DNA of 64,000 nucleotides from Escherichia phage ERS-1: sequence record PP337211; one strand, 5' to 3'. Below the pieces are notes generated by a model that worked only from the letters and a program-made list of their open reading frames with translations, searched no databases and was not told the DNA's origin. Within the stretch, counting starts at the first letter, position 1. Every line of letters begins with the position of its first letter. The position numbers were made by a program, and so were the translations under genes. This document shows positions 4,274-47,399 of this stretch, one piece after another.

Positions 4274-4299
4274 TGGTGGCCTCTTTTTCGACCCGCGAG

Positions 4300-10871: not shown

Positions 10872-10978
10872 TCAACGAATCGCAACGGCTTTGCCTGGTC
10901 CTCGCGCCGACTTCTTGCGGTTTTGCGCCGCGCGGGATCGGGTGCCCGTGTATGCGGCGGAAGGCTTCTTGTAGTTCA
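10872..10978 (-). CDS. Small basic protein
   Basis: GGAAAGGAG, 9 nt, then ATG at 10978; translation MNYKKPSAAYTGTRSRAAQNRKK...; about 65 nt downstream of motif copy 4. Confidence 0.4.
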
Positions 10979-11044
10979 TGATGGGCTGCTCCTTTCCAAT
11001 CTTGAATCGCGGGTGCTGGTCTGGGGTTGGTTGTTTGGACTCGT

Positions 11045-11082
11045 GTGAAGAAGTATAGTGGTTGTCCGAAGAAGTAAAGCGG
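11045..11082 (-). promoter_or_regulatory. Bipartite conserved motif, copy 4, about 65 nt upstream of an RBS and ATG
   Basis: gtgaagaagtatagtggttgtccgaagaagtaaagcgg with a 15 nt spacer; followed on the minus strand by GGAAAGGAG and the ATG at 10978. Confidence 0.5.
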
Positions 11083-11094
11083 TTTGGTGGTTTG

Positions 11095-12990
11095 GCGCGC
11101 GGCGGATTTCCCGCCGGACCTGAAGGCGGGCGTTGAGGGCCGCGCGGTGGTCGGAGGAAGTCCGCGGCACGTGCACCTGGGGCTCCCCCCTCGGTGAAGC
11201 GGACCTTGCAGCGTCCTGGCCTGCTCCTCCGTGTAGGCCATCCCGCCCCCTCGGCTCCCGCTTCGTCGCTTCCGCGTGTCGCTCGGCGGGGGTGCTCCTC
11301 GGGAACGGCGGCTTGTCCGACTTCGGGCTGTCCTTCTGTAGGCTCCTGGGTCGGTCGACCTTGGGCGAATCGAACGGGCTGCCGGGTCTTGTCCCTGTGC
11401 GCCCGGACCTGCTCCGCGGCGGGAGGTGGGCGCAGGCGCGCTCTCGATCGTGCGCCTCGAAGCCGTTCGTTGGTTGGAATTTCCGCCAGTTTCTGCTCCG
11501 ACTGCGGCCTGCTGTCCGGGAAGGCCCGGTGAGCGCTTGCCGAAGCCGGTGCGGCTGGCGTGGAGTTCGGCCTGGTCGCGGAGGTCGTTGGCGTAGTCGT
11601 CCGTGGGTCCTTCACCACCTTGCCGCTCCGCCTGTCCTGGTCGGTCTTGAGGCGGCCCTCCCCTGGCTCCTGGCCTTCCCTTTGGGTTTCCGGTGAGCGC
11701 CGTCACTTCTGGTCCTGCAGGGCGCGGGTCTCGGGGGGACTGGCGAACCTCGAAGGTGCTTGTGCCGGGTGAGGAGGAAGTGGAGGCCTGTGTTGGGCCC
11801 CTGTTGTCCGGTTGTCCTTGATGCGCTTGAAATAGGCGTGGTCCTGCTTGTGGCCCTCGCCCCTTTCGTGACCGAGAACCGGCGCCTTCCGGGCCCCGTA
11901 CCTTCCCGGACCCTTCGTTCGAGGCGAGGACCTGGTGGAGGTGCTTCGGCCGCTTCCCGTCCGCCCTTGCCCTCGATCCCTGGTGTTCGGTCATCAGGGT
12001 CGAACCTGCTTTCGTGCTTCTTGTCTCCGGCGAAGAAAGCCATCACCGAACAGCAGGACTAACCAGATCGCGGAGGTGGGCGTTGAAGGAGCCCACCAGG
12101 CGCTTCGAGTCGCTGACTTGGAGGTAGTGACGCCCAACATCGTGCCCGTGACCTTGGCGAAGAAGGACTTGCCGGTGCCGCGGCGACCGCGGAGGACCAC
12201 GGCCCTCGCCCGGGCCGTCCGGGGTGCTGGACCTCCGCGCCCCTCCCGACAGGTAGCGGCAGTGCTCCGGGTTCCCTGAGCCTGGACGTCGTCGCGGATG
12301 TGGTCGGGAAGGGCGCGCTCTCGCCCGGGAGGGAGTCGCCAACCCGCGCCTGGGTCGTAGGCTTCTTCCACCTCCTGGCCGGGGGTGGTGATGGGCTCGT
12401 GTTGGCGGCGCTGGGCGATCCGTTTGTAGGCTCCCGCGGCCTTCTCGATGGGCTTGCCCTCCTCCAGCGCCCAACCACTTCACCTTGATGTGGCGGTAGC
12501 GGTTGCGGAAGTCCTCGAAGGACTGCTCGCTGATTTGGTCCGCTTCATCGCTGGGTCCCGAACCTCGCTGACGATGCGGCACTTCTTCTGCCGATGTCCG
12601 CGACTGACGGCGTGCTTCTCGTTGAAGCTTGCGCGGCCAGGGTCCACCGCCTCCCCGCGGGCGTTCGATCTGCCGTGGGCGTAGCCTTCCCGTTCGGCTT
12701 GTCTCTGACGCTCGCGGCGATTTCGTCGGAGCCGGTGATCACCGCGAAGACGTTTGGGGACCTCCGCCGCCAGGTTGGTGCCTCCAACCTGGCTTCCCGA
12801 CCGGCAGAGGGGTACTGGTCGGGTCCGTGGGTCCTGCCCGGTGCCCTGCCCTGCGTGGTCGCTGATAGCCTTCCCGCGCCGGCCGGGCTCCGGCTCCTCC
12901 GTCCCGATGTCCGGGACGTTGCCCGTGATCTTGCCTTTGCACGGCCCCCCGGCCTGGCCCTGCTCCGCCTTTGGACTCGAACCGCGGGGG
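11095..12990 (-). CDS. SF3/P4-D5-type helicase-like P-loop NTPase (left copy)
   Basis: Walker A GTGKSFFAKV and Walker B LVLLFGDGF in ORF 11994..12371; collinear with the right-arm copy, which also shows a sensor-like ASNEDW...RR segment. Start codon apparently degraded (CAAAGG where the right copy has CAGATGG). Confidence 0.4.
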
Positions 12991-13022
12991 CGAATTGTTC
13001 GATGGGGCAGCTGGCCTCGTCG

Positions 13023-13611
13023 CTACGAGACGGCGAGGGTCGGCTGGCGACCCTTCTTGACCTTCTTCGCGGTGGGCGTCGATCGTGCCCGGGAGGCGGG
13101 CGATGCGAGCTCCGTTGTGGCGGTCCGCCTGAAGCACCTTCTCCGGCTGGATGTTGTACGCTTCCGCTCTGAGCCTTCGCCGCCGATCCGGCGATGTCCG
13201 CTTGTCGGACGGGTTTGGCTGCCAAGCCCTGCATAGCCCCCGCCCGAGTCGATGATGACCGTGGGCTTGGCGTGTAGGACTGGAGGCTTCGGCGCCGCGC
13301 CCGCTCCTCCTCGAAAGCCTCCCCGGCTCGCGGTCGATGTCCCGTGAAGCCTGGCGAGGCGGGCCAGTTGTCCTCCTTCGAGGCTTTCACGTTTGATTCG
13401 CCGGCGGACCGGGTTGGCGTGGAAGGCGTTGCGCTTGCCCTGATGCCCTTCGATCGCTCTGCGGCCTTCTGCCTGTGGTTGGGCGGAATGCCACCGTCTC
13501 CGTTTTCCCGTCCGGGATGATGGCCGTTGGGTACCACGGCCTCCCGGTCCCTTTCCTCCTTCAAGAAGTCGATCGCGTCCTTGGTCTTGTGTTTTGGTGT
13601 TTTCTGCCCAT
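13023..13611 (-). CDS. Hypothetical protein, gene X (about 196 aa)
   Basis: ATG at 13611 preceded by GGGGGA; ends ...AKKVKKGRQPTLAVS at 13023; right-arm paralogue at 61277..61868 has the same start context and C-terminus. Confidence 0.45.
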
Positions 13612-14428
13612 TTGATCCCCCGGCTGAAGGATATTCCCGAAGGCGCTGGCCGCGCTTTCCCCCGTCCTCCTTTGGATGACCGGAGGCGTGTGCCGGAGGC
13701 GGCGGCGATTTCGCGCTGGCGTTTTGCCCGCCCGGCGGCGGATGGGAACCGGCGTGGGCTTCGGCTCGTCCGAGGTGCTGGCGCGGTCTGATCGTCCGGC
13801 GGCGGTCCGCTTCCCGTCGCAGCGGTCCGGGCGCCTGTCCTTCGCGGCTTCGATCGGTTGAGGCCCTTGCGGCGGCGGTGTAGGCTTTCGCCTTGGTTGG
13901 TGCGGCAGGCCGGGCAGGACTCCTTGGTTCTTGGAAGGCGTGTCCGCTTGTGCGGCCCCTGCCCGTTGTCGTTCCCGCGAACCTGGCCCTGGTGCCGGCT
14001 ACCGTCCTTCCAAATAGACGCCGTCTCGTTCCCCCGACCTTCGGCGAGGAAGGCCCGGCCCCCGGCCTTGCGGCGACGGGCAGCGTGTCCTCGCTGGCGG
14101 TGAAGTGGTCCGCTCAAGCGGTCCGCCCCTGGGCGGCCTGTGTTGGTGAATTTCAATTTGGTTGCTGGTTGTAGTTCACGTCCGGGTCCCGGCAATGGGC
14201 TTCTCCTCGCCGGTCCGGTTGGCGACCGGATGACGGGGCGGAGGGAGTCCGCGTTGCGGCTTTGCTGGTTGCCCTCCTTCCACGTCGTAACGGCGGGCGA
14301 CTTCCGGCCTTTGACGCGCCGATTCCCTTCCTGCCCCCTCCCCCGGATCGCGGCCCGAGTAGTCGATGCCCGGGAAGGCGACCCGCTTCGCCTGCCTTCC
14401 CCGCGGCCTCCAGGCTGTTGGACCTGGG

Positions 14429-14451
14429 GAAGAAGTATAGAGCGTGAAGCC
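14429..14451 (-). promoter_or_regulatory. Conserved motif half-site (TATACT-type), copy 5
   Basis: gaagaagtatagagcgtgaagcc; shares the CTTCACGC-TATACT arrangement with the copy at 57884. Confidence 0.35.
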
Positions 14452-15094
14452 GTTGTGAGCCGCAAAAAGTTGAGCGCGATTTGACCTCTGCGCAGGCTAC
14501 GTGCCGGCAATTCGTACCGCGGTCCGGGTGCAGGGCTCGGCGAGTTGTTCGTGCCCGGGCGGAAGCCGTTGAACCCGGTCGAAGCCCGCTGTCGTTGGGC
14601 CTGGAACCGTGACGGCTCCGACCTTCGTGGAGGGTCCTTGTCCTGCCCGCGACGTGTTGGGCCTGCCGAGGCGGCGGTCCCTGGTGGTTGCGGTCCTGCG
14701 ACGTTCCCGAGGAAATAACCGCTGGAGCCGTCAAGGACTCTGCCCCTTCTCGCGGCCTAGGGCCTGGCGATACCGTTGCTGCCCGCAAACTTTGGCAGGA
14801 CGGTGCCGTGATGTCGCTGCGCGGCCCTCGATCCTTCCGGTGACGGTCGGGGGTTGCCCGCGCGGCCCTTCTTCTCGACCGCGCGGACCTGGTCCGGTTC
14901 CCCCCTCACCCGCTGTGGTCGATGAGGTATGCCTTGTCTGTCTCGCGCTCGATGACCCTTCCGAGGTCCGGTGTTGTCGTTGCTGCGGCGGTGTTGTTCT
15001 CTGGGGGTTCGCCCCGGACTTCCTCCGGGCGGCGGCCCTTTGCGCGTGTGTTGGTGGGTGAGCAAGTGACCTGCGCGTCTGTTGATAGGGACTT

Positions 15095-17611
15095 TCACGG
15101 CGGAATTCCCTGTCCTGCCCGGAAATACCCTGCTCTGCCAAATTTTGCCGCTGCCTTTGACGGGAGTTCCAGCGGCGTGCGCCTCACGTGGGCGGCTTCC
15201 GCGGCCTCCTTCGTCGTGTACGCTGAAGGCGATCTCGTCGTGGACCTGGATGATGATGTCCGTCTGGCTTCCTGTGCCTCTACGCCGTCCTTGGTCTGGT
15301 CTCGCGGAGGAGCCCTGAATCTGCGGTTGGTCCCTTGTGGTTCTTGCCCGTTCTCCCGTCCTCGTCCTTCGGGAAGTGGTGCGGCGACCGCTCGGTGTCG
15401 TGACGTAGCCGGCGGCCTTCGCCCGGGCTTCGGCCTTTGCCGCTTCTCGATGCAAACGGCCTTGTGGTCGAAGGTGTCCGGGAGGGCCTGACCCTCCGGC
15501 CCCGCGGCCTCGAACCTCCGCGCCCCTTCCGCGACCTGGCGCTGACCCTCCGGGCTGTTCGTGAACGGCCGGAAGCGGGGGCGTGCGGGCGGCCATCGGT
15601 CGGGAGCCCGAGCTTGCGCTCCTCCCCTCGCCCGCCTGTCCCGGTAGGACCTGCCGGTAGATTTCCTTGGCGTCCTTGCGCTTGATCCCCGCCTGTCCGC
15701 CATCATCCGGTGGTTGTCGGTGTTCGGGTCGTTGCGGACTGTCCCGGGCTTCGATTGTGGACCTGCCCTGCTGGTGCCCGTTTGGTCTTTGCCGGGTGGC
15801 GTAGTGGACCGCCTTGCGCGGCTCCTGCTGGCTGTAGTCGTTGGACGCCCTGTGTTGGCCTTCCTCCGGGAGGTAGATGGCCCGCCGCGGCGGCGAACTC
15901 TTCCCCAGCCGGTCGCTGCTGGAGGTTCGGGTGTTCGCTGGACTGTCGCCCGTAGGCAGGCGCCGCGGTCCCGTCGCTTTCGTCTCTTCCCTTCCGGCGG
16001 CGGAGCTGGTCGAACGTCCCGTGGAGGCGCCGTTCGCCATGTGGTCCGGGACGGACTGGCGAAGGTCGTGCGCCTTGTTTGCCTTCCGGCGCGTTCGAGG
16101 AGGCTCTGCCTCGGGTGGCTGATTGAGCCCTGGCTCCTTGTCGATGTTGGGCTTGCCCTGGGAGGTTGTTCGGCTTGATGCCGATGTGTTCGAGGGCGGG
16201 GGCGATCACCTCTGGCTTCCCGGTACGCTGCGGTGATCCGGTGGCCGGTGATCGACCGGACTTGGGCGTGGGCCTCCGTCTCCTTCTCCGCGCCGGGCTG
16301 GTCGGTTGTCCTGGCGGTCGCGTCGATTGCACGCCCCGGCGGCGAAGGCCCGTGAGGATCGGGGCAGGCCGGACTCCCTGGTGCAGGTTGCCCCGGGTCC
16401 TGCCGGACCTCCCGCTCCTGACGGCGGAGGATGTTGGGTGCGCGTGTCCTCCTCCGCGCACTTCCCGAGGCCTTGGCCGGAGGTCCCGGTTGCCCTTCTT
16501 CGGGCAATCCTGTACCACCGCGGCGGCGCGTGCTTCGTCCTTGCCGTGGAAGCCCCACCGCTCCGCGATAGCTTGCATGCTGTAGCCGTCGTGGAGTTTG
16601 GCAGTTGCGGGTCTGCGATCTGGATGTCACGGAAGTAGCGGACCCGCTCCAACTCGAGTGCCGTCCCCGGCGAGGAAGTCCGTTGGTGCCAGGTTGGCCT
16701 CCCAGGTCGCCGGTGAGCACCTTTGCCGGGCGCGGAGGTAGGCCGGTACGCCCTCCGGCCGGTAGGTTGCCCCCGCCTTCGCGTCCGATGGGGAGTACCC
16801 GCCCGGGCCGTCCTCGATTGCGAAGCTGATGCCGGTGATGTAGCTGTTCGGCGACGGCCCGCCCCGGCCCCGAGCTCTCGAGGTCCGGTCCCCGCGTTCC
16901 TGCCGATGGCGACCCGCTCGGCCCTCCCACCAGGGAGGGTGCTGAGGTCCGGGGCCTCCCTGTCGCTGGAGACGGTCGTGAACAGGGTGGTTGGAGGTAT
17001 GAGGCTTGGCTCCCACCTCCGCAATCATCTTGCGCGAGGTTCAGGTGCCGCGGTCTGGCTCCGGGTCGGACTCCCGGAAGGTGAGGATGTGGACCGCTTC
17101 GGCTCCGTCCTCCGTCCTGCCCGTTCGCGGCGGCGAAGGCGTCCGGCATGACGACGGGGCGGAGCGGGGCGAGGACCCCGTTGCGGGCGCCGGACCCTCT
17201 CCCGTAGTGGATCGCCTTCTCGGAGGTCCTGGCGCGGGTCCTCGTGCTCTTGCGGTTGCGGGTCGCGCACTGGTCGCGCGGCCTTCGGTGTAGCGGAGGC
17301 CGTTGGTTCCTCCCAGCTCCTGTGTTGGACGGGCGAGCGGCAGCGCTCATCCGTCCTTGCTTTTCGTTTTGTCCTAACTCTCTTCCTTTGGTTTTGCAGC
17401 CGGAGCGTCTGCTGGCGGTAGTAATACCGGGAACCCCGCCTCCCCGTCGGTGTTGTATGGACCTTGCGGAGGTGCGCGAGTTCTTCCGTGTCGAAGGCGT
17501 AGAACTTCTGCTGCGGGCTCCTGCCGGTTGCTGGCCTCTCCAGTTGTTCGCGCACCACCTCCTCGAGAAGTCCGAGAGACGGCGATGCGGCTGGCGCTTC
17601 GCTGCCCGCAA
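15095..17611 (-). CDS. Family A DNA polymerase with 3'-5' exonuclease domain
   Basis: Minus-strand motifs in correct order: Exo I FYAFDTEE (about 17480-17505), PNLQ box GRQSSEHPNLQQ, motif A DYSQQEPR (15801-15818), GYVTT...GRR, motif C IIIQVHDEIAF (15225-15248), stop about 45 codons later. Frames break repeatedly; N-terminus may extend to the ATG at 18084. Confidence 0.6.
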   Translation of the reverse strand: MRAAKRQPHRRLSDFSRRWCANNWRGQQPAGARSRSSTPSTRKNSRTSARSIQHRRGGGVPGITTASRRSGCKTKGRELGQNEKQGRMSAAARPSNTGAGRNQRPPLHRRPRDQCATRNRKSTRTRARTSEKAIHYGRGSGARNGVLAPLRPVVMPDAFAAANGQDGGRSRSGPHPHLPGVRPGARPRHLNLAQDDCGGGSQASYLQPPCSRPSPATGRPRTSAPSLVGGPSGSPSAGTRGPDLESSGPGRAVAEQLHHRHQLRNRGRPGRVLPIGREGGGNLPAGGRTGLPPRPAKVLTGDLGGQPGTNGLPRRGRHSSWSGSATSVTSRSQTRNCQTPRRLQHASYRGAVGLPRQGRSTRRRGGTGLPEEGQPGPPAKASGSARRRTRAPNILRRQEREVRQDPGQPAPGSPACPDPHGPSPPGRAIDATARTTDQPGAEKETEAHAQVRSITGHRITAAYREARGDRPRPRTHRHQAEQPPRASPTSTRSQGSISHPRQSLLERAGRQTRRTTFASPSRTTWRTAPPRDVRPAPPPEGKRRKRRDRGACLRATVQRTPEPPAATGWGRVRRRGGPSTSRRKANTGRPTTTASRSRARRSTTPPGKDQTGTSRAGPQSKPGTVRNDPNTDNHRMMADRRGSSARTPRKSTGRSYRDRRARGGAQARAPDRWPPARPRFRPFTNSPEGQRQVAEGARRFEAAGPEGQALPDTFDHKAVCIEKRQRPKPGRRPPATSRHRAVAAPLPEGRGRENGQEPQGTNRRFRAPPRDQTKDGVEAQEARRTSSSRSTTRSPSAYTTKEAAEAAHVRRTPLELPSKAAAKFGRAGYFRAGQGIPP

Positions 17612-18080: not shown

Positions 18081-18650
18081 TCATGAATCTTGCTTCCCTG
18101 GCTTCCCTTCGTCCGCGTCTCCTCCCTGCCGCGCCGTCGTCATTGCCTGGGCCTCGCGGGCCTCGAAGGCGGCGCGGCGGCGTTGATCCGTTTCCTTCCC
18201 CGGCCGTCTTCCCGTCGGTGGCGGCGACGTTCTCCGCTCGCCCCGGGCGGCGTCGAAGCGGAGGGGTTGGACGCTTGAAAGCCTTGTGGGCCTTGAGGTT
18301 GGGATTGCTCGCGGCGGAAGAAGGGTTGCGGAAGCCGTCGGCGTCCGGCTCGCCGGTGCCCGGCTCCTGGTCGCCTTCCTGCCGGTCCGTGGAGGCTTGA
18401 AGCGGAAGGGCTCCGCGATCCCGGCGGCGTAGGGGTCGGGCGTTCCTTCCCGGGGTGTTGGGTTGGCGGCGAGGTCCGCGAGCGGGCGACCTTGCCCAGT
18501 ACCCTCATCGGCGTGGAAGTTGGCGCTGACTTGGCGGTAGATGCCTTGTTGGCCCGAGGTCCGGCGACGTCGGCGGAGGTAGCTGAAGTGGACCGCGTTG
18601 GCCCCTGTAGGCTCCCCGGGTCCCGTCGTCGGAGCGGTTGGTGCGGTCAT
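18081..18650 (-). CDS. Hypothetical protein
   Basis: ORF with moderately protein-like N-terminus (MTAPTAPTTGPGEPTGANAVHFSYL...); its TGA stop overlaps the next ATG (ATGA at 18081-18084). Confidence 0.3.
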   Translation of the reverse strand: MTAPTAPTTGPGEPTGANAVHFSYLRRRRRTSGQQGIYRQVSANFHADEGTGQGRPLADLAANPTPREGTPDPYAAGIAEPFRFKPPRTGRKATRSRAPASRTPTASATLLPPRAIPTSRPTRLSSVQPLRFDAARGERRTSPPPTGRRPGKETDQRRRAAFEAREAQAMTTARQGGDADEGKPGKQDS

Positions 18651-19025
18651 GTCCGGCCGACCGTCGTGATCTGGAAGATGGCCTGAAGGTTGGCAGGGGA
18701 GGTCCTTGCCTTGGCGGCCTGGTCCGCGTCCGCGCTCCTGTCCAGGACCTGGCGGTGGTCATCGCGGTTCGCCTTCGGGCGGCGATGATCTTGGGCAGTG
18801 GTCCTCGAAGAAGTGCTGGCGCCCTGCGGAAGCCGTAGGCCCCGTGGAAGGTCCTGCCGTCGTCCAGTAGCTGCGCTTGCGACCGGCGAAGCGGGGCGCG
18901 CATTCCGCGTCATTGCGTCTGCCCAGCATCCAGAGGCTTTCCATCAGGTGGAAGAAGGGGTTGGCGTCCCGTTCTGCCCGGCGCGCTCCGCCGGCGGAGG
19001 CGCCGGTGGCGACGGGTTCCGGGCG

Positions 19026-21245
19026 TCAAGCGGGGCCGTTGCGCGAGTCGCGGCGGACGCCCTCGAAGGACCTGTCGAGAGGGCCTCCCGGGAGGGCCTG
19101 TTGTACGTTGCGGGCTTTGATGACTTTGTCTGTTAATTTGAAGATGACGTTGCCGGTCCGGCGAAGGACGCGGAAGCGGTTTGCGGGTGGTGCCCCGTTA
19201 AGCCGGCGTTCGGTTCGCGGATCGGGGGCGATAGCCCGGGACGGCGATTTTAACCGCGAAGGGGCGGGCGAACTGCTCCGCCTCGGCCCGGTTTCATTGT
19301 TTCTGACCGTGGTGACGGAGTTCGTGACGGCCTCCGCGGAGGACTTCGCCTTGGACTTCTCCGCGTCCGCTCGTCCCGGGCCTCTTCTAGGTGTCGGTGG
19401 TGGCTGTGGGCGCTTGGCGTGGTGTACCGGCGTTGTACTCGTGGGACTTGGCGATGCGGCGGCGCTCCCCGAGGTCGCGCGTGCGAAGCGTTGGCCCTCG
19501 AACTGGACCTTGACGTCGCCGTGGTCGGCAAGAAGCCGTCCGGCGCCTGCCCTTCCCGCTTGCGGAGCGGTTCCGGGTAGATGTCGTTGTACACGGCGTC
19601 CCCAGGGTGAACTTCTCCGCCTCCCTGGGCTTTTTTCGCGGGCCTCGAAGGCGTGCTGAGGACCCCTTGCCGCTCGCGGATGTAATTGGACCCGGCACCT
19701 GCCCGAACCTGGCCTCCAGTTCGTCGATGCCGCCGGAATGGTCCGGCGGCGAGGTTTCGATCCGGCGAGGGTGGTTGCCTTGCGCCGTGGTGCTCCAGCG
19801 GGTTTCTTGCCTTCGTCGGTGGTGCGCTTGCTCGTCGAACTTGGCGTGTGTTCGATGTCCCGGGCCTCGAACCGCGGCCCCCGCGCGGGCTCCCGAGCTG
19901 CGGCGGTCCGAAGGTTTCGTCGAAGCCCCGGGCGTCCGTGTTGGCTTGGCTTCGGCTCGATCAGTTTCCGCGTTCGTCTGCTCCGGGCGGGGCTTCGCGG
20001 CGAGGTCGTGCCCTGCTGGCGGTCGAGCCCGCGGATCGCCCCGGCAGGGCGTTGGCCGGTTCCGTGACGTCCTGGGCGTCGTGGTAGCGGGTGTGGCGGA
20101 GGTCGGTCACCGTTGCCCGGACGGCCCCCGCCGACCAGCGGTGCTGCTGGAATTTGGCCCTGCGCTTTCGAGGGTCGGAACCCGCGGAACCTTGGGGCTG
20201 CACTTGGCGGGCTCCGCGTCGCGCGCCCGTTCCTCGCGGTCCTCCCGGTACGGCCCGGCAATCTCCGCGATGTAGCGGTGCTTGGTCCGCTGTACCCTCC
20301 TTGGAGGGGTCGGACTCCGCGCGGATCGTGAGGCTCCGGGCGCCGCCTTGTTGCCCGCGGCGGCGTAGTCCTCCGGCGCTTCGCCGCTTCGCGGGCTCGA
20401 GTCCTCCCCTTTGCCGGGTTCCCGGCTCCGCCTTGTCCTGGAGAGCGGAGGGTGTCGGCTGTTGATGTAGCGGGCGATGGTGAGGGCGGGTCTTGTAAGG
20501 TGCGGGTGGTCCGCGTAGGGCTTGCGGATGTTCTCCTGGTCCTGGTCGTCCCGGGTTGGCTTCGCGGCAAGATGTTAGGGTACTGCCGCCCTCGCGAACC
20601 GGGTCCGCGGTCCGGGGCCGGGCTTCCCGGCCTTGCGGTCGGTAGACGTCGTGCCGGGCCCTTGAAGGCGGCGATGTCGTCGACGCGTGGGTGGTCGGTT
20701 CGGGGTCCTGGTCGGGCTCTCGATGACGGCCTTGATGTCCTTCGGGGCCGTCTCCCTGTGGATGTCGCGGACCGTCTCGCCGTCCGCCGTGGCCTCTCGC
20801 CGGACCCGGGCGATGGTGCGGTGCTTGTCGGCCTCTGGTTCTCCTCGACGGGCTTCCCGCCGTCGCGCTCCTGGATGTGCTTTGGGCTTCCAGCGGCGTG
20901 TCCTGAAGGCCGGGTTGTTCCGCCGTTCGCCTTCGACCCCTGCGCGTATGTAGATGGGCACTGACACCTCGCGCCCTCCAGCCCTACCGCCTTCACGTCC
21001 GGGCCCCGCCAACCAGCTCCGCGACGGCCTTGGCCGCGGCTTGGGTCTTGATCCGGTCCGGACCGGCGGTGGTCGCTCCGGCGGCGGCGGGGGTAGTCCC
21101 CGATGATGGCGATGCCGCCCGGCGCGTCGCCGGGATCGGCTTGTGGTCCGGGACGATGACGTCGATGACGTGGCCTGCGGATCGCGGTCCTGGCTGCGGG
21201 TGTGGTCTTGCCGGAGCCGTTACTGCCCTGCGTGATGTACTTCAT
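19026..21245 (-). CDS. P-loop NTPase (kinase-like N-terminal Walker A); may be more than one gene
   Basis: GGAGAA, 6 nt, ATG at 21245; N-terminus MKYITQGSNGSGKTT; protein-like C-terminal end GNVIFKLTDKVIKARNVQQAL... stopping at 19026; intervening frames broken. Confidence 0.4.
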   Translation of the reverse strand: MKYITQGSNGSGKTTPAARTAIRRPRHRRHRPGPQADPGDAPGGIAIIGDYPRRRRSDHRRSGPDQDPSRGQGRRGAGWRGPDVKAVGLEGARCQCPSTYAQGSKANGGTTRPSGHAAGSPKHIQERDGGKPVEENQRPTSTAPSPGSGERPRRTARRSATSTGRRPRRTSRPSSRARPGPRTDHPRVDDIAAFKGPARRLPTARPGSPAPDRGPGSRGRQYPNILPRSQPGTTRTRRTSASPTRTTRTLQDPPSPSPATSTADTLRSPGQGGAGNPAKGRTRAREAAKRRRTTPPRATRRRPEPHDPRGVRPLQGGYSGPSTATSRRLPGRTGRTARNGRATRSPPSAAPRFRGFRPSKAQGQIPAAPLVGGGRPGNGDRPPPHPLPRRPGRHGTGQRPAGAIRGLDRQQGTTSPRSPARSRRTRKLIEPKPSQHGRPGLRRNLRTAAAREPARGPRFEARDIEHTPSSTSKRTTDEGKKPAGAPRRKATTLAGSKPRRRTIPAASTNWRPGSGRCRVQLHPRAARGPQHAFEAREKSPGRRRSSPWGRRVQRHLPGTAPQAGRAGAGRLLADHGDVKVQFEGQRFARATSGSAAASPSPTSTTPVHHAKRPQPPPTPRRGPGRADAEKSKAKSSAEAVTNSVTTVRNNETGPRRSSSPAPSRLKSPSRAIAPDPRTERRLNGAPPANRFRVLRRTGNVIFKLTDKVIKARNVQQALPGGPLDRSFEGVRRDSRNGPA

Positions 21246-21556
21246 CTTGGGTTCTCCACCGGTTGAAAACGGCGGAGCCGGAGCCCCGCCTGGTTGCTGT
21301 TGGTTGCGTGATCGGGATGATCTTGCGCTCGCCGCCGTCCTCCTCCGGCGGGTCTGGTTCCACGATCTTCTTGAAGTCGGGCGAGCGGCCTTCGCCGCTC
21401 CGGCTGGTTCCGAACCGGCGGGCTTGCCCTTCGTCCGCTGTCCGCGCGGTGGAGACCTGCCGGTGGGGCGCGTCCCTTGACCTCCTGGAAGGGCTGGCCC
21501 GTCGGTCCGGTGAAGGTTCGGCACGCGCTGGCCGTGGCCGGTCTGCGGTGATCATT

Positions 21557-22688
21557 TCACGCCTTCCAAAGCCAGTGCCGGCTCCGCCGGCTCCGGGCTT
21601 CCCGCGGCGGGTCCAGGCGTCGCGTAGGTCGGTTGCCGTGCTCGTCGCCAGTTCCGGTACCTGGCCGGTGGGCTTCGACCCGGCACGGCTCCGCGATGGT
21701 CTTTTCGGGCTCCGGCCTGGTTCTCCGCGGGCTGTCGGCCAAGGCTTTGGTACGCTCCGGTCCGAACCGCTTTGGAGGCGTTCGATCATTGCCGGGGCCC
21801 GCTGTAGCCCGCCTCCCGAATTTTCGGCGATTGTGGTCGTTGCCGACCGCGGCCTGGTGCTCCAGCGTGTGGCGGATGTCGTCGTGGGTGACGATCCCCG
21901 GGATCTGCGGATTGACCTGAATGGAGGTGTAGATGCCCTGACGGCGCTCGGCCATTTCGTCAGATGGTCCTGAAGGCTGATGGCCCCGGCAGGCCGTGCC
22001 GTTGTGGTCGTTGCCGGTGTTCTGTGACTTCTGGGCGTAGCTGTAGGGGTTCCGCTTCGGGTGCCCATGGCCCGTGACGGTAGCCGAGACGGCTGGAAAG
22101 AAGATGGTGCCGGGCTCCCGAAGGCTTCCGCCCCCGCCGGGCGTTATGGGCGCCGTCCCGGTTGGGAAGGGGTCCGTGAAGCTGGAGAAGTAGCCCGCGG
22201 CGGAGGTCCGGGACTTCGAGAGGGTTTGCGGACCTGCTCGCCGGAGTTCGCCGGGACGCCGATGAGGCCGGTGCCGCGGTAGCCCCGGAACCCGCTGTCG
22301 ACGTAGCAGGCGCGTGCCGCCTGTAGCCCTGGAGGTTCGTTGATCGCCTCGCTGAAGGGGCGGGCGCGGGAGCCTCGCTCGTCGTTGCGCTTGTCCTGGT
22401 ACCTGCCCTGAAGGGGCTTGGCGTTCGGGATGCGGATGTGCGGGAGGTAGGTGACGTCGTTTGAAGCGGCAGGCCCTCCACCTCCTTCTTGTCGTCGTCC
22501 TTCGCGTCGCGGACCTTCCCCTCTGCCCTTGCCGGAACTTCGCGCGGCTGGTCCTGTGGGTTTCCTTCTCCCCCATCGGGTCCTGGAACTCCCGTTGGTT
22601 CGGTCCGGCGGGCGAAGACTTGTAAGCCTCCTGCAGCGGCTTCGCCGGTTCTTCTGTCCTTGCCGCGTGGTCGGTGCCATTCTCCTTC
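21557..22688 (-). CDS. Hypothetical protein
   Basis: High third-position GC segments ([27 protein letters not shown]; [42 protein letters not shown]); starts just downstream of motif copy 6. Function not assignable. Confidence 0.35.
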
Positions 22689-22690
22689 AA

Positions 22691-22729
22691 CTGTGAAAGT
22701 CAGCGCCTTACCCGGAAGAAGTAAAGCGG
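22691..22729 (-). promoter_or_regulatory. Bipartite conserved motif, copy 6 (proximal half intact)
   Basis: ctgtgaaagtcag...ccggaagaagtaaagcgg immediately upstream of the minus-strand gene starting near 22688. Confidence 0.4.
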
Positions 22730-25671
22730 CGTTAATTCGGCCCGGCTCGCCCGTCGCTTCCGGGCGGCTCCCCTGGCCTTCGTCTCCTCCGAACGCCGGC
22801 GACCGGCGAACTGCCCGGAACCGTGCGGCGACCCTTCCGCGTCGGGTCGTCTGGTTGTCCTTTTGGGACCCGAGGGTGAACGCTTGGGGTTGACGGTGGC
22901 GGTCGGTCGCTGTGAACCTGGCGTCACCGCTGTCGGGGATCGGCAATTGTTCGAAGGGCTCGAGGATAGCCGATTCCTGCCGCTTGTAGTCGATGTTGGC
23001 GTGTACCGTGCTGAAGTACCTGGAGCAGGTCGGGTCCTGTGCTCCCGTCTCCGGGTCCTCCTTACAGCGGGCGTTTAGGTGAGCCGGTCCGTCACGGTTA
23101 CCGATGTTCGGGCGATGGGGCGTGGATGGACGGAAGCCTGTCGAGCGGGTCGCTGCGTTTCGGCTTTTGGGACGGTAACGGGTTGGGGAACGGGGCGGAG
23201 GCGTCCCGGGCCGCGTCCGCGTACCCGTAGCCCTCGTCCGGATGGGTCGATCCGGTTGCCCGGTCCGGCCCGCGGCCTTCTCGATGTACTCCCGGCTGGC
23301 GTCCTGGCTCCGCAGATCCGCTTGTGGAGGATGACGTCGTAGTTGCGGAGGCTCGCCTCCTCCAAGCCCTCGAGTGCCCGGCGGCGACCGTCCCCCGAGC
23401 CGACACCGATGACCGGGTCCCGGCAGTCCGGGAGGTGCGGGGCGGTGCGGACGGCCTCCGCGGCGTTCTCCGTGATCGACTCCGGGAGCTTGGGGCGTTG
23501 GCTGTAGCTGTCGTGGTAGTTCTCCTGGTGCTCTGGCCGGACGGGCGATCGCGGAGCGGCCCGCCGGGATGTCCAGGTCCGCCCCGAGCTGGCGAGCGTG
23601 CTGCTGTTGGACGCGCGGGCGTCCGCGGCCCCGTCGCGCTTGAAGCGGGGCCCGTAGTTCGCTTGCACCCGTTCCCCAGCTGCTGGCGTAGGCGACCGCC
23701 CTGCCCGCCTTCGAGCGGCACGTGTCCGGCTGCCGATGGTGGTTCTTCTGCTGGTCTCGATATGGGCGAGGCCCCGTGAATCTCGCTGAAGGACGGACCC
23801 GGAGCGCCCTGCTCTCCCGCTTCAGGATCGGCACCCCGTCAGCTGGTGTTCGACCGGGGCGTCGTTGACGATTGTTGCTGCTCTTGGGCGTGGTCGAGGA
23901 AGGCCCGTGCGGCGGAGGCGGCCTGCCTCGGTCGAGCCCGCCGTCGATTTCCCGGATGTCGTTCCGGGTGGGAGCTGGCCCTTCGCGGGATTTTCCGGTT
24001 TGCCGCCGCACCGTCTCCACCTTCTGGATGTTCGGCGGGCGGTTGCCGGGTGGGGCGAGGTCCGCGAACTGCCGGTTTGTAAGTCCGCGACCCTGGGCGA
24101 TCGCCTCGCGCTTGGGCTTCGCGTTCTCCGGGTACTCGTGAGCCTCGCGCCGCTCCGCCGTCGCGGCCTTCTCCGGTCCTTGAAGCGAAGACGGCGGCGT
24201 TGTCCGAGTCCGCCGGCATCTCGACCGGTTCCGGCTTGTCGCGATCTTGAAGCTGATCGGGACTGAAGCCGTTGTGCTCCTGGGCGCGGGCGGAGACGGT
24301 GCGGAAGGGGCGCTCCTCCTCCGTCGCCCGGGCTCCCCGGTGGGTGCCCCGCCTCCCGGGCGGTCGCCGAGCGGGCCTGGAGGGAGGTCCCGCAGTCGGC
24401 GGTGCGACCCTGGCCTGTAGCGGCGGCGCTCGCGTCCCCGGAGGCCTGTGACCCCCGGCGGGCGTCTCCTCCTCGTGGTGGGCCGCGACGTCCCTTTGCG
24501 GAACCTCGCCCTCCTTCTCCAGGAAGGAGGCGACCCCGGCGTGGAGTAGCTCCAGGTTGAGGCTAGCCTGTGGGCGGGTGGAGAAGTCCCCCGCCTGCCC
24601 GCGCCGAACCAGGGCCGTGCACACGGGGTCGGATCGCGGTGGTGATCCGGTGTCGGCCGGGAACGTCTCGATGTCCGGTTGGGGCAAGTTTCTGCCGTGT
24701 CTTTTCTCTGGTATGCGTGACCGATTTTCCCGCTCGTGTCCTTGCACATGTCCGGTTGGGTAATTGGCGACTGAAGGAAGGCTCCGTGCGGACTTCTTCG
24801 TTGACGTGAATACGGGATGGACCGTCTGCCCTTGCCGTCGCCGTCCTCCGTGATCCGGGTGAATCCCGCAGGTAGCTTGAGGGCTCCCTTCTGTATCCCC
24901 GCTCCGCCGGGCACCTCCGGCGGAGGGTAGCCGCGTGCGCTCCGAGGCTCCCAGTGGCCTTGCCCTGCTTGGGCTGGCGGGCTACCGGCGGGCGTCCTGC
25001 CTTCGGCGGACTTCTGCGGCTCGTGGGCCGGGATCGCGTGGCCTTCCGGGACCTCACGTGGAACCGCTTGTGCCGTCCGCGGCGAAGGCGGAGCGGCACC
25101 CGCAGCCCTTCCGCTTCATGTCCTGCTGAAGCCGGAGGGCGTGGCTCGGTCCGGGCTTGTTGCTGCCCGGGCTTCGACCTGTTCCTGCCTTGGTCGTCCG
25201 TTTCGGGGCGGGATCCTGTATGTCGGGAGACGCCCGCTCCAGCCCTCGCGGCGGGGATCGGGGCGTGGCCCGGGCGGCCGTGTCGGCGCCGCGCGGGGCG
25301 CGGGCCTTCTTCTCCTCCGCGGACTTCGGAGCCTTCTGGGCCTTCGGAGGCGACGGGGCGGGGGTTGCGGTTTGTTTGCGGTTTCGACCTTCTGGGTTCG
25401 GCCTGCTCTGCCGCTCAAACTTCCGGGTGCGCTTCGGCATAACGCGCCAGGCATCTTCTGGTGTGGGGCAATGGCGGTGGTCTTGTTGGCGAAGCGGCGC
25501 ACGTTCGGACGGACTTGCCGTTGCGGAAGGTGCCGATGACTTCGTCGGACCTGCTCGACCAGGGCTGGGCCGGAGGGCTCGCTGGGAGGCTTCGGTGTAG
25601 GCGACGTTGTCGAAGTTGATGGTGTTGGCGGTAGGCTCCTTTTCTGGGGTTGAGGTGCGATCTTGTTCGAC

Positions 25672-25729: not shown

Positions 25730-28002
25730 AGGTTCTCGGTCCGAAGGCCGGGTGCCCGTTGGACGGCGGAGGGCGAACCGTTGAGGCCTTCTTCCCTGAA
25801 GGCCCGGGCGGCGTCCCTCGTGCCCTGGTTCTCCTGTACCGGCTGGTTGCGCCCCGAGGTGTGCGGTACCCTGGCGACCTCGAAGCCCTGCGACGTCCTG
25901 GCAAACCCTTGCCGGTGGAAGTCCTGGCGCTGGGCCGGATAGCCGAAAGCCTCTGCGACGTCTCCGCCGGGTCAGGAGGATGACGTGCCGACCGCCGGTG
26001 GTGGGCCTCCACCGCGGCCGCGGGCACCCCGCGTCCCGGGCGGGCCGCTTGTCGTCCCGCTTCCGGCGCCCCGGGAAGGTGTGGAGGGTGTCGGCGCGGT
26101 CGAAGGTCTTGAGGTAGTCCTTGGCGATAGGCCCGCCTGCTTCGCCCTACGCCCTCCCGCGGAGGACCGCGGAGGGGAGCCAGGGGCCGGTCGGGTCCGT
26201 GTTAGGTCCGGCGCTGGCCGATGAGTAGGGGCTTGTTCGGTTCTTCGGGCTCCTCGCTTTCTTCTGGTGACGTTTGGTTTGAGGGCTCGCTCTGTACCGG
26301 GATGGCCCTTTGGGGTGTCCTGGTTGCGCGAAGGAGGAACCCGGCCGGTGAATCTGGGTACCGCCTTCTGTCTGTCCTTTGCACCCTCTCCGTCCGGTGG
26401 CCGGGTCGACGCGGTCCGGCTCGCCGGCTCCTCCGCCGGGGCGTCCGCTTCGGGCTCGCCGCCGTCTCTTCCTTTGCCAGGATGCCCACCGCTTCCCGCC
26501 GGGCGGAAGGTCGTGTGCCCTTCGCCCCGCCTTCCCTGGTGCTGGCTGTGTCCCAGTCTTCCCGCTGATGTCGGAGCTGCCGCCGCTCCGCTCGCCGCGG
26601 AACGACCCGCTGGGCGGCGACGGGCGGGGCGGCGACGTGTTCCTGGACGGTGACGCGGGAGGGGCCTTGCCGCGGACCCGAACGCGGTCCGTAGTCCCCC
26701 GCCTTCGCCTCGCGGGCCGCCTGAACTCGACGGCGGTGCGGTCGAAGCTGTAGGCGAGTTCGGCCGGACCGGAGCTGACGTTGTCGGGCGTGCCGACGGT
26801 CCCGGTCGGGGCGATGGAAGTGAGGTGGGAGTTGCGGATGCCGTATTTGGCGATGGCGTCCTGCGTCCTCGCGGAGGGTCTTGATGAACTGGCCCTGAAG
26901 GTACTTGTCCTTGTCGAACTTCGGGAAGGAGCCCTTGACCTTGGCGATGTGGGCGCTGCCTGGTAGGCTGCGCGTGCGCGTGTCGGTACCCTGCCTCGAA
27001 GGCGAGGAAGGCGGGCGAACCGTACGCGGCCTGGCTTCGCGCGTTGCCCTGCCGGCGATCCCGAGGCCCTTGCGGCGCTTGTCCTTGGCTTCCTGCTTCT
27101 GCTGCGGCGGGTACATCGCGCCATCAACCCGTTGCCATCGCGCGGACCACCTGCGGATGTCCTCGCGGACTGGTCCCGTCGAAGGCGTAGCGGCCCGCCC
27201 CGTCCTCTAAGATGTACTTGACCTGTTGAAGGAGCCCAGGAGGCAGGCACCGTAGGGCGGCAGGGGTTGCTCGCCGGTGGGGTTCGTGGCGGCGATGGTC
27301 TGGCGTCCTGGCGCTCGTTTGCGGTTGATCGCGTCGATTAATGGCGTACCCGGCTCCGCCTGTCCCGTTCGTGCGATCGCGTCCTGGCGCCTGGGCGTCG
27401 CTTCGCGGGCAGGTCTGGCCCTCGAAGGTGAGGGGAACGGCTCGCCGGAGGCGATGCGGCGCTGCCTTGTCGGTGATGGCGACGGAGACGTTGAAGCTGG
27501 TTGCTTTGGGTCTGCCGAAGGAGACGGGCCGCCGCTTCTGGGCTCCCTCCGGGAGTTGGTCCAGGTCCGGCGGCTGAACGTCCTTCCCGGGTTGCTTGGC
27601 GTGAATGAACTCCTCGATGTCGGGATGGTCCGCGGATCGTTGTCCGGGCTCCGCGGCGATGGCCGGCAGGAGGCGACGGCTGGCAATCGCGTCGAAGATG
27701 TGGGTGAAGCTGATGGGGCCGGAGGAGTGGGACTGGAGCTTGCGGATCGGTCGCCGCGAGGACGGAGGGTGCTGAAGTCAGGCCGATCCCCGCCGCCCTT
27801 CCCCGGTATCGCGTGGCCGCGGCTTCCGCGGCCCGGATCGCTTGACGGAGCCTTCGCCGTCCCAAGCTGTCGTTGATCGTCCCGGAGACGTAGGTTGTAT
27901 GGCGTGACCTGGCGAGTGGAGCCCGTTTGCGGACTGGATGCGGCCCGCCGGGAGGAAGCTGCGCCTGGAGGGCGTCCCGGAAGTCCGCGAAGTGCTGGTC
28001 AT
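25730..28002 (-). CDS. Ribonucleotide reductase, class II-like large subunit
   Basis: Minus-strand segment ATNPTGEQPLPPYGACLLGSFN (about 27225-27290) matches the RNR NPCGE...CNLGS active-site region, but with T for the radical Cys and L for Asn. Gene size between the helicase and motif copy 7 fits an RNR. Start at 28002 is tentative. Confidence 0.45.
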
Positions 28003-28049
28003 TGTTCCTTCAGGGCCGCGGCGATCCGGTTCGATGGCCTCGCGGAAGG

Positions 28050-29306
28050 ACTCGCCGCTGCCGCGGTACTTCTGGGCGTGTAGTTCTTGTGAGTAGGGTA
28101 CTTGAGGACCTGTTGTGAGTCTCCTGAAGGGTTGAGGGCTTTCTATCGTGTTGTTGCTCCTGTTCTTGGGTAGGCTGGTGAACGAGGTCGATGTGTTCCG
28201 CGGCCCGGGTAATGGCGGTGTATGCCCCTTTCCTTCCGGTCCTTCCCGTACCCCTGTCCGGGCCTGGCGGACGTTGTTCCTTCGGGAGCCCTGCGACTTG
28301 TGGACGGTGAGCGGCTGCCCGTCGAACTCCTCCGCGTCCTCCGCTCCCAAGATTCGCTTGTTGCCGTGGAAGTAGTGGGGGTGGGCGCTGACTTCGACCT
28401 TCGCGCCGTCCTCGCCTTCGATGTCCTTTACGGTCGCCGCTGTCGAAGATCGTGTCGCGGCGGACCTTCCGGCTGGCCGTTGAGGCCTGCCCGTGGTTGT
28501 TGCGGAGGTGCCGCTCGTCGCCTTCCTGGGTGGGCGTCTGTCCGCCCGAGGAGTTCCCGGGTACGTCCGTTGCTCGTGATTCTCGTGGCGTCCTGCCGGG
28601 TCAGGAGCCCTTGGCGGTGGAGGTACCATGTCCCGCAGTTCTTCGCGCTGTGGTGGCGGTGGGAATTTGTGGCTGGTCCGTAGTCGCCGGGGCGGAGGCG
28701 CGGCCCTCGCGGACCTCCTTGGAGGTCCGGAACGATCGGGTTGTCCTGGGCCTGGCGGTGAATCTCCGTGAGGATGTCGGGCTTGTTCTTGAAGAAAGGG
28801 CGCTGCCCGGCGGGAGCTGTCCGGGATCGCCTGGTGAGGATCGGTGCCGAAGCCAGGCCCTCCTCCCGCCGTCGGTTGCGGAGATTTGCGAGCGTGGCCT
28901 CGAACCAGGGGCGACTCCGCGTTGAGCTGGAAGGTCGGGCGGGCGAGGTCGATCTGCTCCGCCTTGATCGCCGCAATCGACCTTCGCGAGGGTTTCCGGG
29001 ACGGGCTTGTGAAGTGAAGAGCCGCGCCCGCTCCGCTTGGAGTTCCTTCTGGTGCTGCTGCGACTTGTCCTTGGGCGTGTAGATGAGCTTGTGAATGGGT
29101 TCCGTTGGTCGCCCCGGACTTCGTGAGGACGTGAGCGGCCTTGCCGGTGTAGGCGGCGAAGTGCCGGACCGTCGACGGTCGCGGCGAGGTGTTTGGCCGG
29201 GTGGTCTTGCCGGTTCCGGCGTACCCGGCGAGCTGGAAGGCGGGCTTGTCCCGGGTCTTGAGCGATGCTGCCCGGTTGGCGCGGTCCGCCGTTGCGGACT
29301 CCGTCA
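28050..29306 (-). CDS. RecD/Dda-like SF1B DNA helicase
   Basis: GGAG, 7 nt, ATG at 29306; Walker A AGYAGTGKTT, motif Ia AYTGKAAHVL, TIHKLIYTPK (reached only after a +1 shift at a CCC run), ILTEIHRQ, LTVHKSQGS, AYTAITRAAEHIDLV; at least three frame changes. Confidence 0.6.
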
Positions 29307-45404: not shown

Positions 45405-46000
45405 TCACGTTTGGGCGTCCGTCGCCCAGGGTGAGCAGCGGGATGTCCCTGCCGGACCGGCGTTGTTCTTCGCCAAGGCGAAGTCCGGTGTTACGTTTGA
45501 GTCCGTCGTGCAATTCGCTGGACCGCCGCGATGTCCGCGAAGTAGGCCGTGACGTTGCCCTGCCCCTGGAAGGTGCCCGCGGAAACGTCGAAGGCCCCGA
45601 GGAGGGTGACTGCCTTGTCGGGCGAGACGTTGTCGTCGATCGTCAGCGTCAGCTCCGTGAGGAAGGCGAACAGCGCGGCGGGGTTCGACTCGCCCGTGGT
45701 CTGGTGCCCTTCCCCCGATCCGGCTGAAGTCCGAGGAGGTGTTGAAGGCCGGTGCGTCCAGGTCGGGACGGGCGCCCGACTTCACGCCGCGCAGCCGTCG
45801 CGCTGTTCGTTGTCGGTCGCCACGAAGCCGACGGCCGTGACCTTGTCGGCCTGGCGAATCTGGAGGCTCGGTTCGTTCGGGACCGCGCCCTCTGGACTCT
45901 GAGCGGTGCCGTTGGCGTCCTGGCCGGGGTACGTTCGAGCTGGTAGGCGCGGCGCTTGATCCCGTTGGCGTCCCGCTCGTTGATTGTTGCCGTAGGCTGC
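45405..46000 (-). CDS. Phage structural protein (possible major tail or capsid), partial
   Basis: ALFAFLTELTLTIDDNVSPDKAVTLLGAFDVSAGTFQGQGNVTAYF on the minus strand with high third-position GC. Confidence 0.3.
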
Positions 46001-47399
46001 TGGATGGTCTTGCCCGTGCCCGTCTCCGCCGCGGCGCCGGCGGTCTTGTGGGCCCCGATGTAGGTGGCCGCGACCGCCCGGACGCGGGCGAAGCCGTTGT
46101 TGGCGGCGTCGGTGAACTGGTCGCCGCCGCGTCCCCCGCCGATGAATCCCCGCCGCCCGTCAGGCTGGGTCGTCCGTTCTTCGCGCCCGAGCCGCGGACC
46201 AGGCGCGGATAGCTGCCCGACACGTCGATGTTCGGTTTGCGGAGCCCAACTGGAAACCGACCTTGACTGCTTCGCGGTCGCCGGGGCGTCTTCGTCGTTG
46301 CGGTTTGAGTTGCTGCGGTCGTGGCCGTGGAGCTGGCGACGTTCTTCTGCCGTTGTTCGAGGCCTGACCGAAGCCGGAGGCGAGGGCCAATTGCCGGTGA
46401 GGAACCGCGACCCCTCCGTGCCCGAGCCCTGGGTGTAGGTCTTGCCGGTGCCCGTTGCGCCGGAGAGGGCGGCGGTTCCGTTGGTCGGGATGTCGGCTGG
46501 CCTTCTGCGGATGTCCGCGAAGAAGAAGCCGGCTGCGGTTTGTTGTTCTGGGTTGTTCTCACCCGAAACCGCCCGAGGCGTCCGGTTCGTGGTCGCGCCC
46601 TCTCGCGCTGGCGGGACGGGTTGATGGGGTTCCGGCGACCGTGGCCTGCGATCCTCGGGCGTTGTAGCCGTTGGGCTCCGCGGAGACCCCGTCCGGTGAG
46701 GCCGTTCTCATCGCGTCCTCCTCCCAGGCGGAGGCCGGTGACGTTGAGTCAATCTTGTTAGCCCTTGTCCGCAACCCTCCGTTTGAAGTGGTGGGTTCAT
46801 TGGTTCGTCCGCCGACTCCACCACGTTCATCTGATACCCGCGCCGTCCGGGCCAATCTCTGGATGCGTGCGTCGCGAAACCAAACGCCGCTCGCGCGCCT
46901 CGCCCCTCGAAGGCGTCCCGGCGATCATCGCTTTTTTGGGTAGGCCCGGCCCCGGACCTGCGGGTAAAACTTGTACCGTGATCCTGTCCGGTACGGGTAA
47001 AGCGGCGACCGCCGGGGTCCGAAGGTCGCCTGCCGCGAAGTCGTGTGGGGGGCGTGATCGGGGGCATAGGGCTTGTCCGCGGGCGGAGGGTCGCCCGCGT
47101 CCACCTGGGCTGCTCCACGCGGATCGGAGCCCCGCCGTGAGGGCCGGGGTGTCCGTGGTCACTTGGTGTTGAACTGCCGGGCGATTCCGTCGCGGGCGCT
47201 GTCGAAGGTCGGGAGGGTCGTTTGCCTGGCCCTGGGTCGGTGCGATTGCTCGCCCGTTCGGGTCTGCGGTTTCACGGCGATGACCTTCCGGTCTCCCAGC
47301 CGGGCCTTTCCACCTCCGGCGGAGCCGTCTGGCCCTCCGCTGGGCGAAGTCGCGCTGGTCGCCCTTGCGGATCGTCTGGCCGTCGACGTAGCGTTGCCG

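Follow-up and report, generated by a model that had tools for sequence, protein, structure and literature searches.

Organization and affiliation of the window

The helicase gene at positions 28,171-29,304 (minus strand) lies within a nearly complete phage chromosome that occupies most of the window, by which we mean the whole 64,000-nt stretch of DNA analysed here. When the region 27-31 kb was used as a megablast query, 64 phage records were matched, nearly all of them Pseudomonas YuA/PAE1-like siphophages (Yuavirus); 52 full-length Yuavirus records aligned at 85-87% identity, with the reference spans exceeding the query by 110-160 nt per 4 kb. Pseudomonas phage PAE1 (RefSeq NC_028980; 62,181 bp, all genes on one strand) served as the main reference, and positions 1-57,925 of the window are colinear with the reverse complement of PAE1 61,391 to 4. 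The window is rich in G+C (68-70%) and its plus strand has 11% A vs. 21% T. The window is made up of the following segments:

1-57,949, genes on the minus strand: Yuavirus chromosome, nearly complete (PAE1/YuA/M6-like); barcode-08 molecule, read here as one uncorrected nanopore read
57,950-57,993, no strand: native-barcode structure at the left physical end of the phage, consisting of AGGTGCTG, barcode 08 (with errors) and TTAACCTTAGCA
58,030-58,267, no strand: barcode-03 molecule; in order AAGGTTAA, reverse-complement barcode 03, CAGCACCT, a 125-nt insert (58,074-58,198), AGGTGCTG, barcode 03, TTAACCTT and the ligation adapter (58,241-58,264; 23/24 bases)
58,283-58,511, no strand: barcode-02 molecule, with barcodes matching at 22/22 and 24/24 bases around a 147-nt insert (58,321-58,467)
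58,545-58,581, no strand: barcode-07-like structure before the second phage fragment, with a AAGGTTAA-like flank, reverse-complement barcode 07 with errors, and CAGCACCT
58,582-64,000, plus strand: second Yuavirus molecule, inverted; PAE1 45,949-51,924 (polymerase to primase), the reverse complement of ~10,876-16,184

The window shares with PAE1 and other Yuavirus members (YuA, M6, AN14, Pa-L, BL8 and Chuck; Mesyanzhinovviridae) its gene order, its structural and replication modules and an M6-type thymidine hypermodification cluster, and similarity and synteny extend genome-wide, which places the phage within Yuavirus at a level where read errors prevent the use of formal species or genus thresholds. 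The phage is an ordinary member of this group, with a true divergence from PAE1 of about 3-6%. It differs from PAE1 in having another, Pa-L-like right-end region and in having no counterpart of four PAE1 genes, i.e., Orf3 (HNH), Orf45 (endonuclease), Orf50 (HNH) and Orf62 (putative endonuclease), the sites without these genes being at ~55,773-55,889, ~22,740-23,185, ~19,704-19,844 and ~13,610-13,632. Such differences are the usual presence/absence polymorphism of mobile endonucleases, and the differences from PAE1 beyond the missing endonucleases and the right-end region are read errors. The homing endonuclease Orf6 is present in the window phage.

Comparison with Pa-L showed that 708 nt of genome are absent before position 1 (right end, ~0.7 kb); hence, the sequence from which the window was taken is longer still. 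We also considered position 1 as the right physical end of the chromosome and rejected it, given these missing 708 nt and the lack of a match between the first 800 nt and the right end of PAE1. Positions 1-796 and 2,079-4,912 could not be aligned to PAE1 but match Pa-L, Pa-S, Clover and BL8 at ~80%, and they represent a variable early or right-end region with mosaic relationships within Yuavirus.

Disrupted reading frames and lost stop codons

All of the genes tested are interrupted in the window, including the helicase and its neighbours, and very long open reading frames (ORFs) overlie some of them:

28,171-29,304, minus strand: Dda-like helicase (PAE1 Orf37 homologue), 41 frame-changing indels
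26,380-28,149, minus strand: ribonucleotide reductase (PAE1 Orf38 homologue), 68 frame-changing indels
15,095-17,005, minus strand: DNA polymerase (PAE1 Orf57 homologue), 74 frame-changing indels
11,299-13,610, minus strand: primase (PAE1 Orf63 homologue), 96 frame-changing indels
3,763-8,997, minus strand: spurious 1,744-aa ORF overlying at least 12 small PAE1 genes (Orf68-80), whose remnants lie in three frames

A tblastn search with the PAE1 Dda-like helicase (398 aa) recovered its conserved blocks in order over 28,181-29,301, with AGYAGTGKTT and DIEGEDGAKVEVSAHPHYFHGNK in frame -2, IHKLIYTPKDKSQQ and TEIHRQAQDNPI in frame -3, and GDPGQLPP and YTAITRAAE.IDLV in frame -1, which bears out the original prediction that the helicase motifs occur in the right order yet in three different frames. 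The detail given there for one block needs correcting, however: what had been reported as TIHKLIYTPK is encoded in the window as PIHKLIYTPK, and the shift attributed to a CCC run is caused by the lost T of a GTG together with a second 1-nt deletion, the latter being what creates the apparent run. A nucleotide-guided codon walk covered 346 of the 397 helicase codons ungapped, and the PAE1 residue was encoded in 83% of those. The match to PAE1 is far beyond chance and a coherent protein can be recovered, as opposed to the motifs being chance matches from which no protein could be reconstructed.

The same breakage had been noted in the polymerase, the ribonucleotide reductase and the structural genes, and frame-changing indels were indeed found in all 16 genes that we tested, a set that includes the terminase, portal, capsid, tape measure, two helicases, ribonucleotide reductase, polymerase, primase and modification enzymes. 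That frames are broken throughout is thus correct, but the proposed spacing of every few tens of codons was too generous, the frame-changing indels in fact being 6.8-11.9 codons apart on average in the individual genes (8.4 overall). Deletions exceed insertions by about 4:1, most indels are 1-2 nt long, and substitutions are distributed evenly over the three codon positions (11.4%, 12.3% and 12.3%).

Stop codons are lost selectively. TGA makes up about 90% of the stop triplets in this GC-rich genome, and the gene strand of PAE1 has 1,035 TGA, 81 TAA and 33 TAG triplets vs. 194, 78 and 41, respectively, in the window, such that on the gene strand, and there alone, the density of stops drops from 1.85% to 0.54% per codon. 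The errors at TG described below erase TGA stops and therefore generate very long false ORFs on the minus strand. The 1,744-aa ORF is a clear example: its product consists of R, P, G and A to 52%, and the remnants of Orf68-80 lie beneath it in all three frames, in agreement with the earlier view that the longest ORFs are wrong-frame artefacts.

Nanopore adapters and barcodes embedded at 57,950-58,581

The stretch at 57,950-58,581 is not phage DNA; a scan by blastn-short found Oxford Nanopore adapter and native-barcode sequences in it, with the adapter, flank and barcode sequences of the Oxford Nanopore kits as references. The ligation adapter TACTTCGTTCAGTTACGTATTGCT matches at 23 of 24 bases at 58,241-58,264, and degenerate copies of it occur at the other junctions. 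The complete architecture, i.e., AAGGTTAA, barcode, CAGCACCT, insert, AGGTGCTG, barcode and TTAACCTTAGCAAT, was found, with two full pairs of barcodes flanking an insert (barcodes 03 and 02) and two single structures adjoining the phage molecules (barcodes 08 and 07). Barcode assignment was unambiguous (best score 15-24 vs. 7 or less for the next barcode). Hence, four library molecules from four differently barcoded samples (08, 03, 02 and 07) are joined head to tail. Overall, about 86% of the adapter and barcode bases are correct, and some of the synthetic DNA beside the phage molecules is poorly called.

The 147-nt, AT-rich insert of the barcode-02 molecule is 94% identical over 97 nt to records of Tequatrovirus (T4-like coliphages) and derives from an unrelated phage of the same multiplexed run. 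The 125-nt, T-rich, low-complexity insert of the barcode-03 molecule (58,074-58,198) had no match among phage records and may be a junk basecall or a short fragment.

Errors follow the strand that was read

In the plus-strand orientation of the window, A of the PAE1 reference is matched at only 58% of positions, with 14% deleted and 15.5% called as G, whereas G is matched at 91%. The inverted segment at 58,582-64,000, which we used as an internal control, repeats this plus-strand A bias, and thus the bias follows the strand of the window and not the coding strand of the phage. The errors are confined to one strand and are equally asymmetric whichever way the phage DNA is oriented.

The locus present twice allowed a more direct comparison, in which copy 1, copy 2 and PAE1 were aligned three ways. 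Each copy has private differences from PAE1, amounting to about 14% of positions, but these fall on complementary bases: the private differences of copy 1 affect T (31%) and G (15%), and those of copy 2 affect A (24%) and C (17%). Differences common to both copies amount to about 3%, with a 496-nt endonuclease gene absent from both set aside. Between the two copies, about 28% of positions are discordant, and they are only about 70% identical as a result of these complementary read errors. Real mutations cannot depend on the strand that is read, and the complementarity of the private errors shows that they follow the read strand, not the phage. The 5.4-kb 'inverted repeat' is not a genomic repeat but another library molecule (barcode 07), which was read in the opposite orientation. 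A strand-aware, reference-free merge of the two copies (MAFFT) raised the identity to PAE1 from 0.76 to 0.785 and did not restore long ORFs; two noisy reads aligned in this way are insufficient for repair.

Errors concentrate at the T of 5'-TG-3'

How often a minus-strand T differs from the reference depends strongly on the base that follows it:

TG: 81% in the main molecule, 72% in the second molecule
TC: 13.5% in the main molecule, 9% in the second molecule
TA: 26% in the main molecule, 17% in the second molecule
TT: 31% in the main molecule, 32% in the second molecule

The TG pattern is thus reproduced in a second molecule that carries its own barcode and represents the other strand of the phage. 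The bases before and after TG matter little (76-85% error in every case), and around isolated TG sites the error forms a sharp peak (0.24 at -2, 0.30 at -1, 0.83 at 0, 0.33 at +1 and 0.15 at +2), the width of which is that of a nanopore k-mer. The T of TG is called as C in 28% of cases, deleted in 27%, called as A in 16% and as G in 10%. As a control, the same strand includes synthetic adapter and barcode DNA, in which the T of TG is right in 20 of 21 cases.

More than 5 nt away from any TG, 8.0% of T, 5.7% of C and 6.1% of G differ from PAE1. In a second control, the clean genome of Pa-L differs from PAE1 by 5-6% in each dinucleotide context; away from TG, the window is therefore about as near to its relatives as clean Yuavirus genomes are to each other. 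Read-strand A more than 5 nt from TG (positions 1-57,925, minus strand) is different in 14% of cases, mostly A to G, about twice the rate for C, G and T. This excess could reflect a bias of the basecaller or a modification on the complementary strand that acts on the motor.

Homopolymers, where the indels had been suspected to cluster, play a minor part. Only C runs show a clear effect of length, with deletion per base climbing from 3% to 11%, and they account for a small share of the total errors; a singleton T, by comparison, is deleted in 16% of cases. Deletion-biased short indels and a homopolymer effect are both present in the window, but we rejected homopolymers as the main explanation, since the T of 5'-TG-3', 81% of which is miscalled or deleted, dominates.

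Thymidine hypermodification genes and the probable cause of the errors

The chromosome in the window carries the genes of a pathway that alters thymidine. Functions were assigned by Pfam on the PAE1 proteins, and the window DNA is colinear with each gene:

18,123-24,698, minus strand: M6-type thymidine hypermodification cluster
18,123-19,128, minus strand: homologue of the TS-like dUMP hydroxymethylase (PAE1 Orf53)
19,198-19,704, minus strand: Nmad5 (PAE1 Orf51)
19,844-20,698, minus strand: 5-hmdU DNA kinase (PAE1 Orf49)
21,298-22,675, minus strand: radical SAM enzyme (PAE1 Orf46)
23,185-23,873, minus strand: PLP enzyme (PAE1 Orf44)
23,875-24,698, minus strand: amino acid:DNA transferase, AADT (PAE1 Orf43)

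The gene set of the 5-(2-aminoethyl)uridine (5-NedU) pathway is thus present by way of the PAE1 orthologues, the window's own ORFs being too damaged to score directly. In phage M6, 5-NedU replaces 30% of T, and the same modification has been predicted for PAE1, YuA and AN14, these being relatives with PLP and radical-SAM genes (Lee et al. 2018, PMC5889632). A preference for TG/TC has been inferred from restriction resistance and attributed to the kinase (Flodman et al. 2019, PMC6449724).

TG accounts for 37% of T on the minus strand of the window (~33% over both strands), and 0.37 x 0.81 = 0.30; hence, the numbers agree with a modification that is targeted to TG and has a high occupancy. The window resembles the M6-type pathway (Lee et al. 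2018, 2021; Flodman et al. 2019) in that the gene set matches and the ~30% replacement of T fits the product of TG share and miscall rate. It departs from the published 'TS' suggestion in that the footprint here, seen through errors rather than chemistry, is at TG only, with TC near background. The TG miscalls probably arise because this phage family chemically modifies thymidine, and TG-targeted 5-(2-aminoethyl)uridine is their likely cause, judging from gene content and error pattern. We lean, by a narrow measure, toward the more specific view that 5-NedU, or the precursor step of the 5-hmdU DNA kinase, targets 5'-TG-3' almost exclusively, with ~80% occupancy on both strands and other T unmodified, in which case the footprint would be a single-molecule map of the modification. 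Less probably, the basecaller could have failed at TG in this DNA for a reason other than modification.

There is a precedent for reading modification from such errors. In Pseudomonas phage iggy, a GA motif for dPreQ0 was mapped via modification-induced nanopore miscalls (PMC10484667), and in both phages a phage-encoded, sequence-specific modification would leave a motif-specific footprint in native nanopore data. The window differs in that the base is thymidine, the apparent motif is TG, and the footprint is known from basecalls and not at the signal level. The literature that we searched contained no paper linking Yuavirus or 5-NedU to nanopore miscalls.

A related record with similar damage

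The best database match of the window is EKU1 (GenBank PV844354; 87.3% by megablast), for which no paper was found in the literature searched. In its annotation, the genes for polymerase, ribonucleotide reductase, helicase, portal, terminase and thymidylate synthase are split into fragments, and it shares the TG excess, with 23% and 21% on the two strands vs. 6% at TC, a 3- to 4-fold higher frequency of differences from PAE1. EKU1 is an assembly in which the bias is milder and present on both strands, whereas the window, as a raw read of one strand, has a bias about four times as strong. We consider EKU1 to be probably a nanopore-derived consensus with the same modification-induced artefact, and it probably ranks first among the matches because of shared errors. 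Differences in the window and in EKU1 co-occur per site with odds ratios of 3-4 for all four bases; since these are similar for all bases, they reflect shared true divergence and carry little information on errors. The EKU1 record is 57,133 bp long, vs. 61-62 kb for its relatives, and is labelled a complete genome.

Proposed origin of the window and alternative explanations

Taken together, we favor, with a probability of roughly 0.9, the interpretation that the window is a slice of raw Oxford Nanopore sequence in which four molecules appear as one, with single-strand miscalls mostly at TG that are likely due to thymidine modification. The broken frames are a sequencing artefact and not biology. 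The two explanations originally offered for them thus fare differently: uncorrected long reads are demonstrated by the Oxford Nanopore barcodes and adapters within the sequence, along with errors that go with the strand read, while decay of the whole element is refuted by two 5.4-kb copies that disagree complementarily and by a bias that stays with the window strand where the phage DNA inverts. Under the interpretation that we favor, the source would be a multiplexed native-barcoding run on several phages, the sequence of which was left untrimmed, unsplit and unpolished. The molecules in series would be a near full-length Yuavirus virion chromosome (barcode 08), two very short inserts (barcode 03, and barcode 02 with T4-like DNA) and a second Yuavirus fragment in the opposite orientation (barcode 07). 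About 30% of thymidine would be replaced by 5-(2-aminoethyl)uridine, and a basecaller trained on ordinary DNA would misread the modified base. The errors would have been made on a single DNA strand, the window's minus strand, where the T of 5'-TG-3' is wrong or missing in about 80% of cases and the adjoining 1-2 bases on both sides are disturbed as well; stops, rich in TGA, are thereby lost, leaving the very long false ORFs.

Ordinary raw long-read noise without any modification, e.g., from an old chemistry or a fast basecalling model with ~15-20% uneven errors, could account for adapter and barcode DNA that is only ~86% correct, for the classic length-dependent deletions in C homopolymers and for the excess of deletions over insertions. 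It is nonetheless improbable, because the errors are specific to TG (81% vs. 8% for T elsewhere), the same TG sequence is called correctly in 20 of 21 cases in synthetic DNA, the T4-like insert is 94% identical to its references, C and G remote from TG are only ~6% different from PAE1, a value equal to the divergence among clean Yuavirus genomes, and EKU1, of the same genus, has a TG excess on both strands. A different chemical reading of the same errors is that the plus strand was read and that the disturbed base is a modified adenine in 5'-CA-3' (e.g., a Mom-like N6 adduct). The architecture of adapters and barcodes is palindromic and hence the read direction is not provable from sequence; whether the sites are described as A of CA (plus strand) or T of TG (minus strand), the positions are identical. 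We regard modified adenine as less probable still than ordinary noise: the window carries 5-hmdU kinase, AADT, PLP and radical-SAM genes, the numbers fit 30% of T, and on the minus strand the adapter at 58,241-58,264 resembles a well-called 5' leader, with the 3' adapter of the molecule before it truncated, the usual nanopore pattern, which argues weakly in the same direction. In addition, it is hypermodification of thymidine, not of adenine, for which this genus is experimentally known (PMC5889632).

Two further explanations can be given hardly any weight. If the frameshifts were real, in a decaying, pseudogenised prophage or defective element, all genes would be interrupted with no excess of third-position substitutions, as observed, and neutral decay predicts the same. 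However, lesions would then be identical whichever strand or copy is read, and instead the copies of one locus are ~28% different, at complementary bases; the bias tracks the window strand in both orientations of the phage DNA, adapters and barcodes of four samples are embedded, and the phage ends adjoin barcodes and not host DNA. To our knowledge, no biological process removes the T of TG from one strand only. The other explanation, a simulated or deliberately corrupted sequence made by injecting errors into a reference genome, is equally remote; nothing specific supports it, and it fits poorly with realistic details that would be difficult to fake, such as a T4-like mini-insert, a series of different barcodes, degenerate 5' leaders and truncated 3' adapters, error footprints around TG with the shape of k-mers, and the same bias in an independent GenBank record.

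Implications for Yuavirus genomes

For genome scanning, nothing in the window should be taken as biology, be it frameshifts, giant ORFs, the AT-rich island at 58 kb or the 'inverted repeat' at 58.6-64 kb. The record did not undergo demultiplexing, splitting or trimming, and assemblies or annotations derived from it would be chimeric. More generally, native nanopore data of Yuavirus phages, often considered for Pseudomonas phage therapy, fail specifically at TG, and such genomes need polishing by amplified DNA or short reads; EKU1 appears to be damaged likewise. If TG is indeed the target, nanopore-only Yuavirus assemblies such as EKU1 would be systematically corrupted at TG/CA, the published 'TG/TC' suggestion would sharpen to a defined dinucleotide, and the ~30% replacement would be explained arithmetically. 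The by-product of the failure is probably a single-molecule footprint of TG-specific thymidine hypermodification, that is, a cheap readout of hypermodification sites that points to TG specificity.

Finally, at 57,915-57,949 (minus strand, starting CGCCACACGCTCCTGACC...) the barcode is ligated straight onto the left physical end of the phage, and the sequence there matches roughly the final 30 nt of the PAE1 record, followed directly by the first bases of that record. A physical terminus of the chromosome thus lies ~30 nt off the start of the PAE1 record, and a phage end abutted by a barcode in this way helps to define the termini of Yuavirus.
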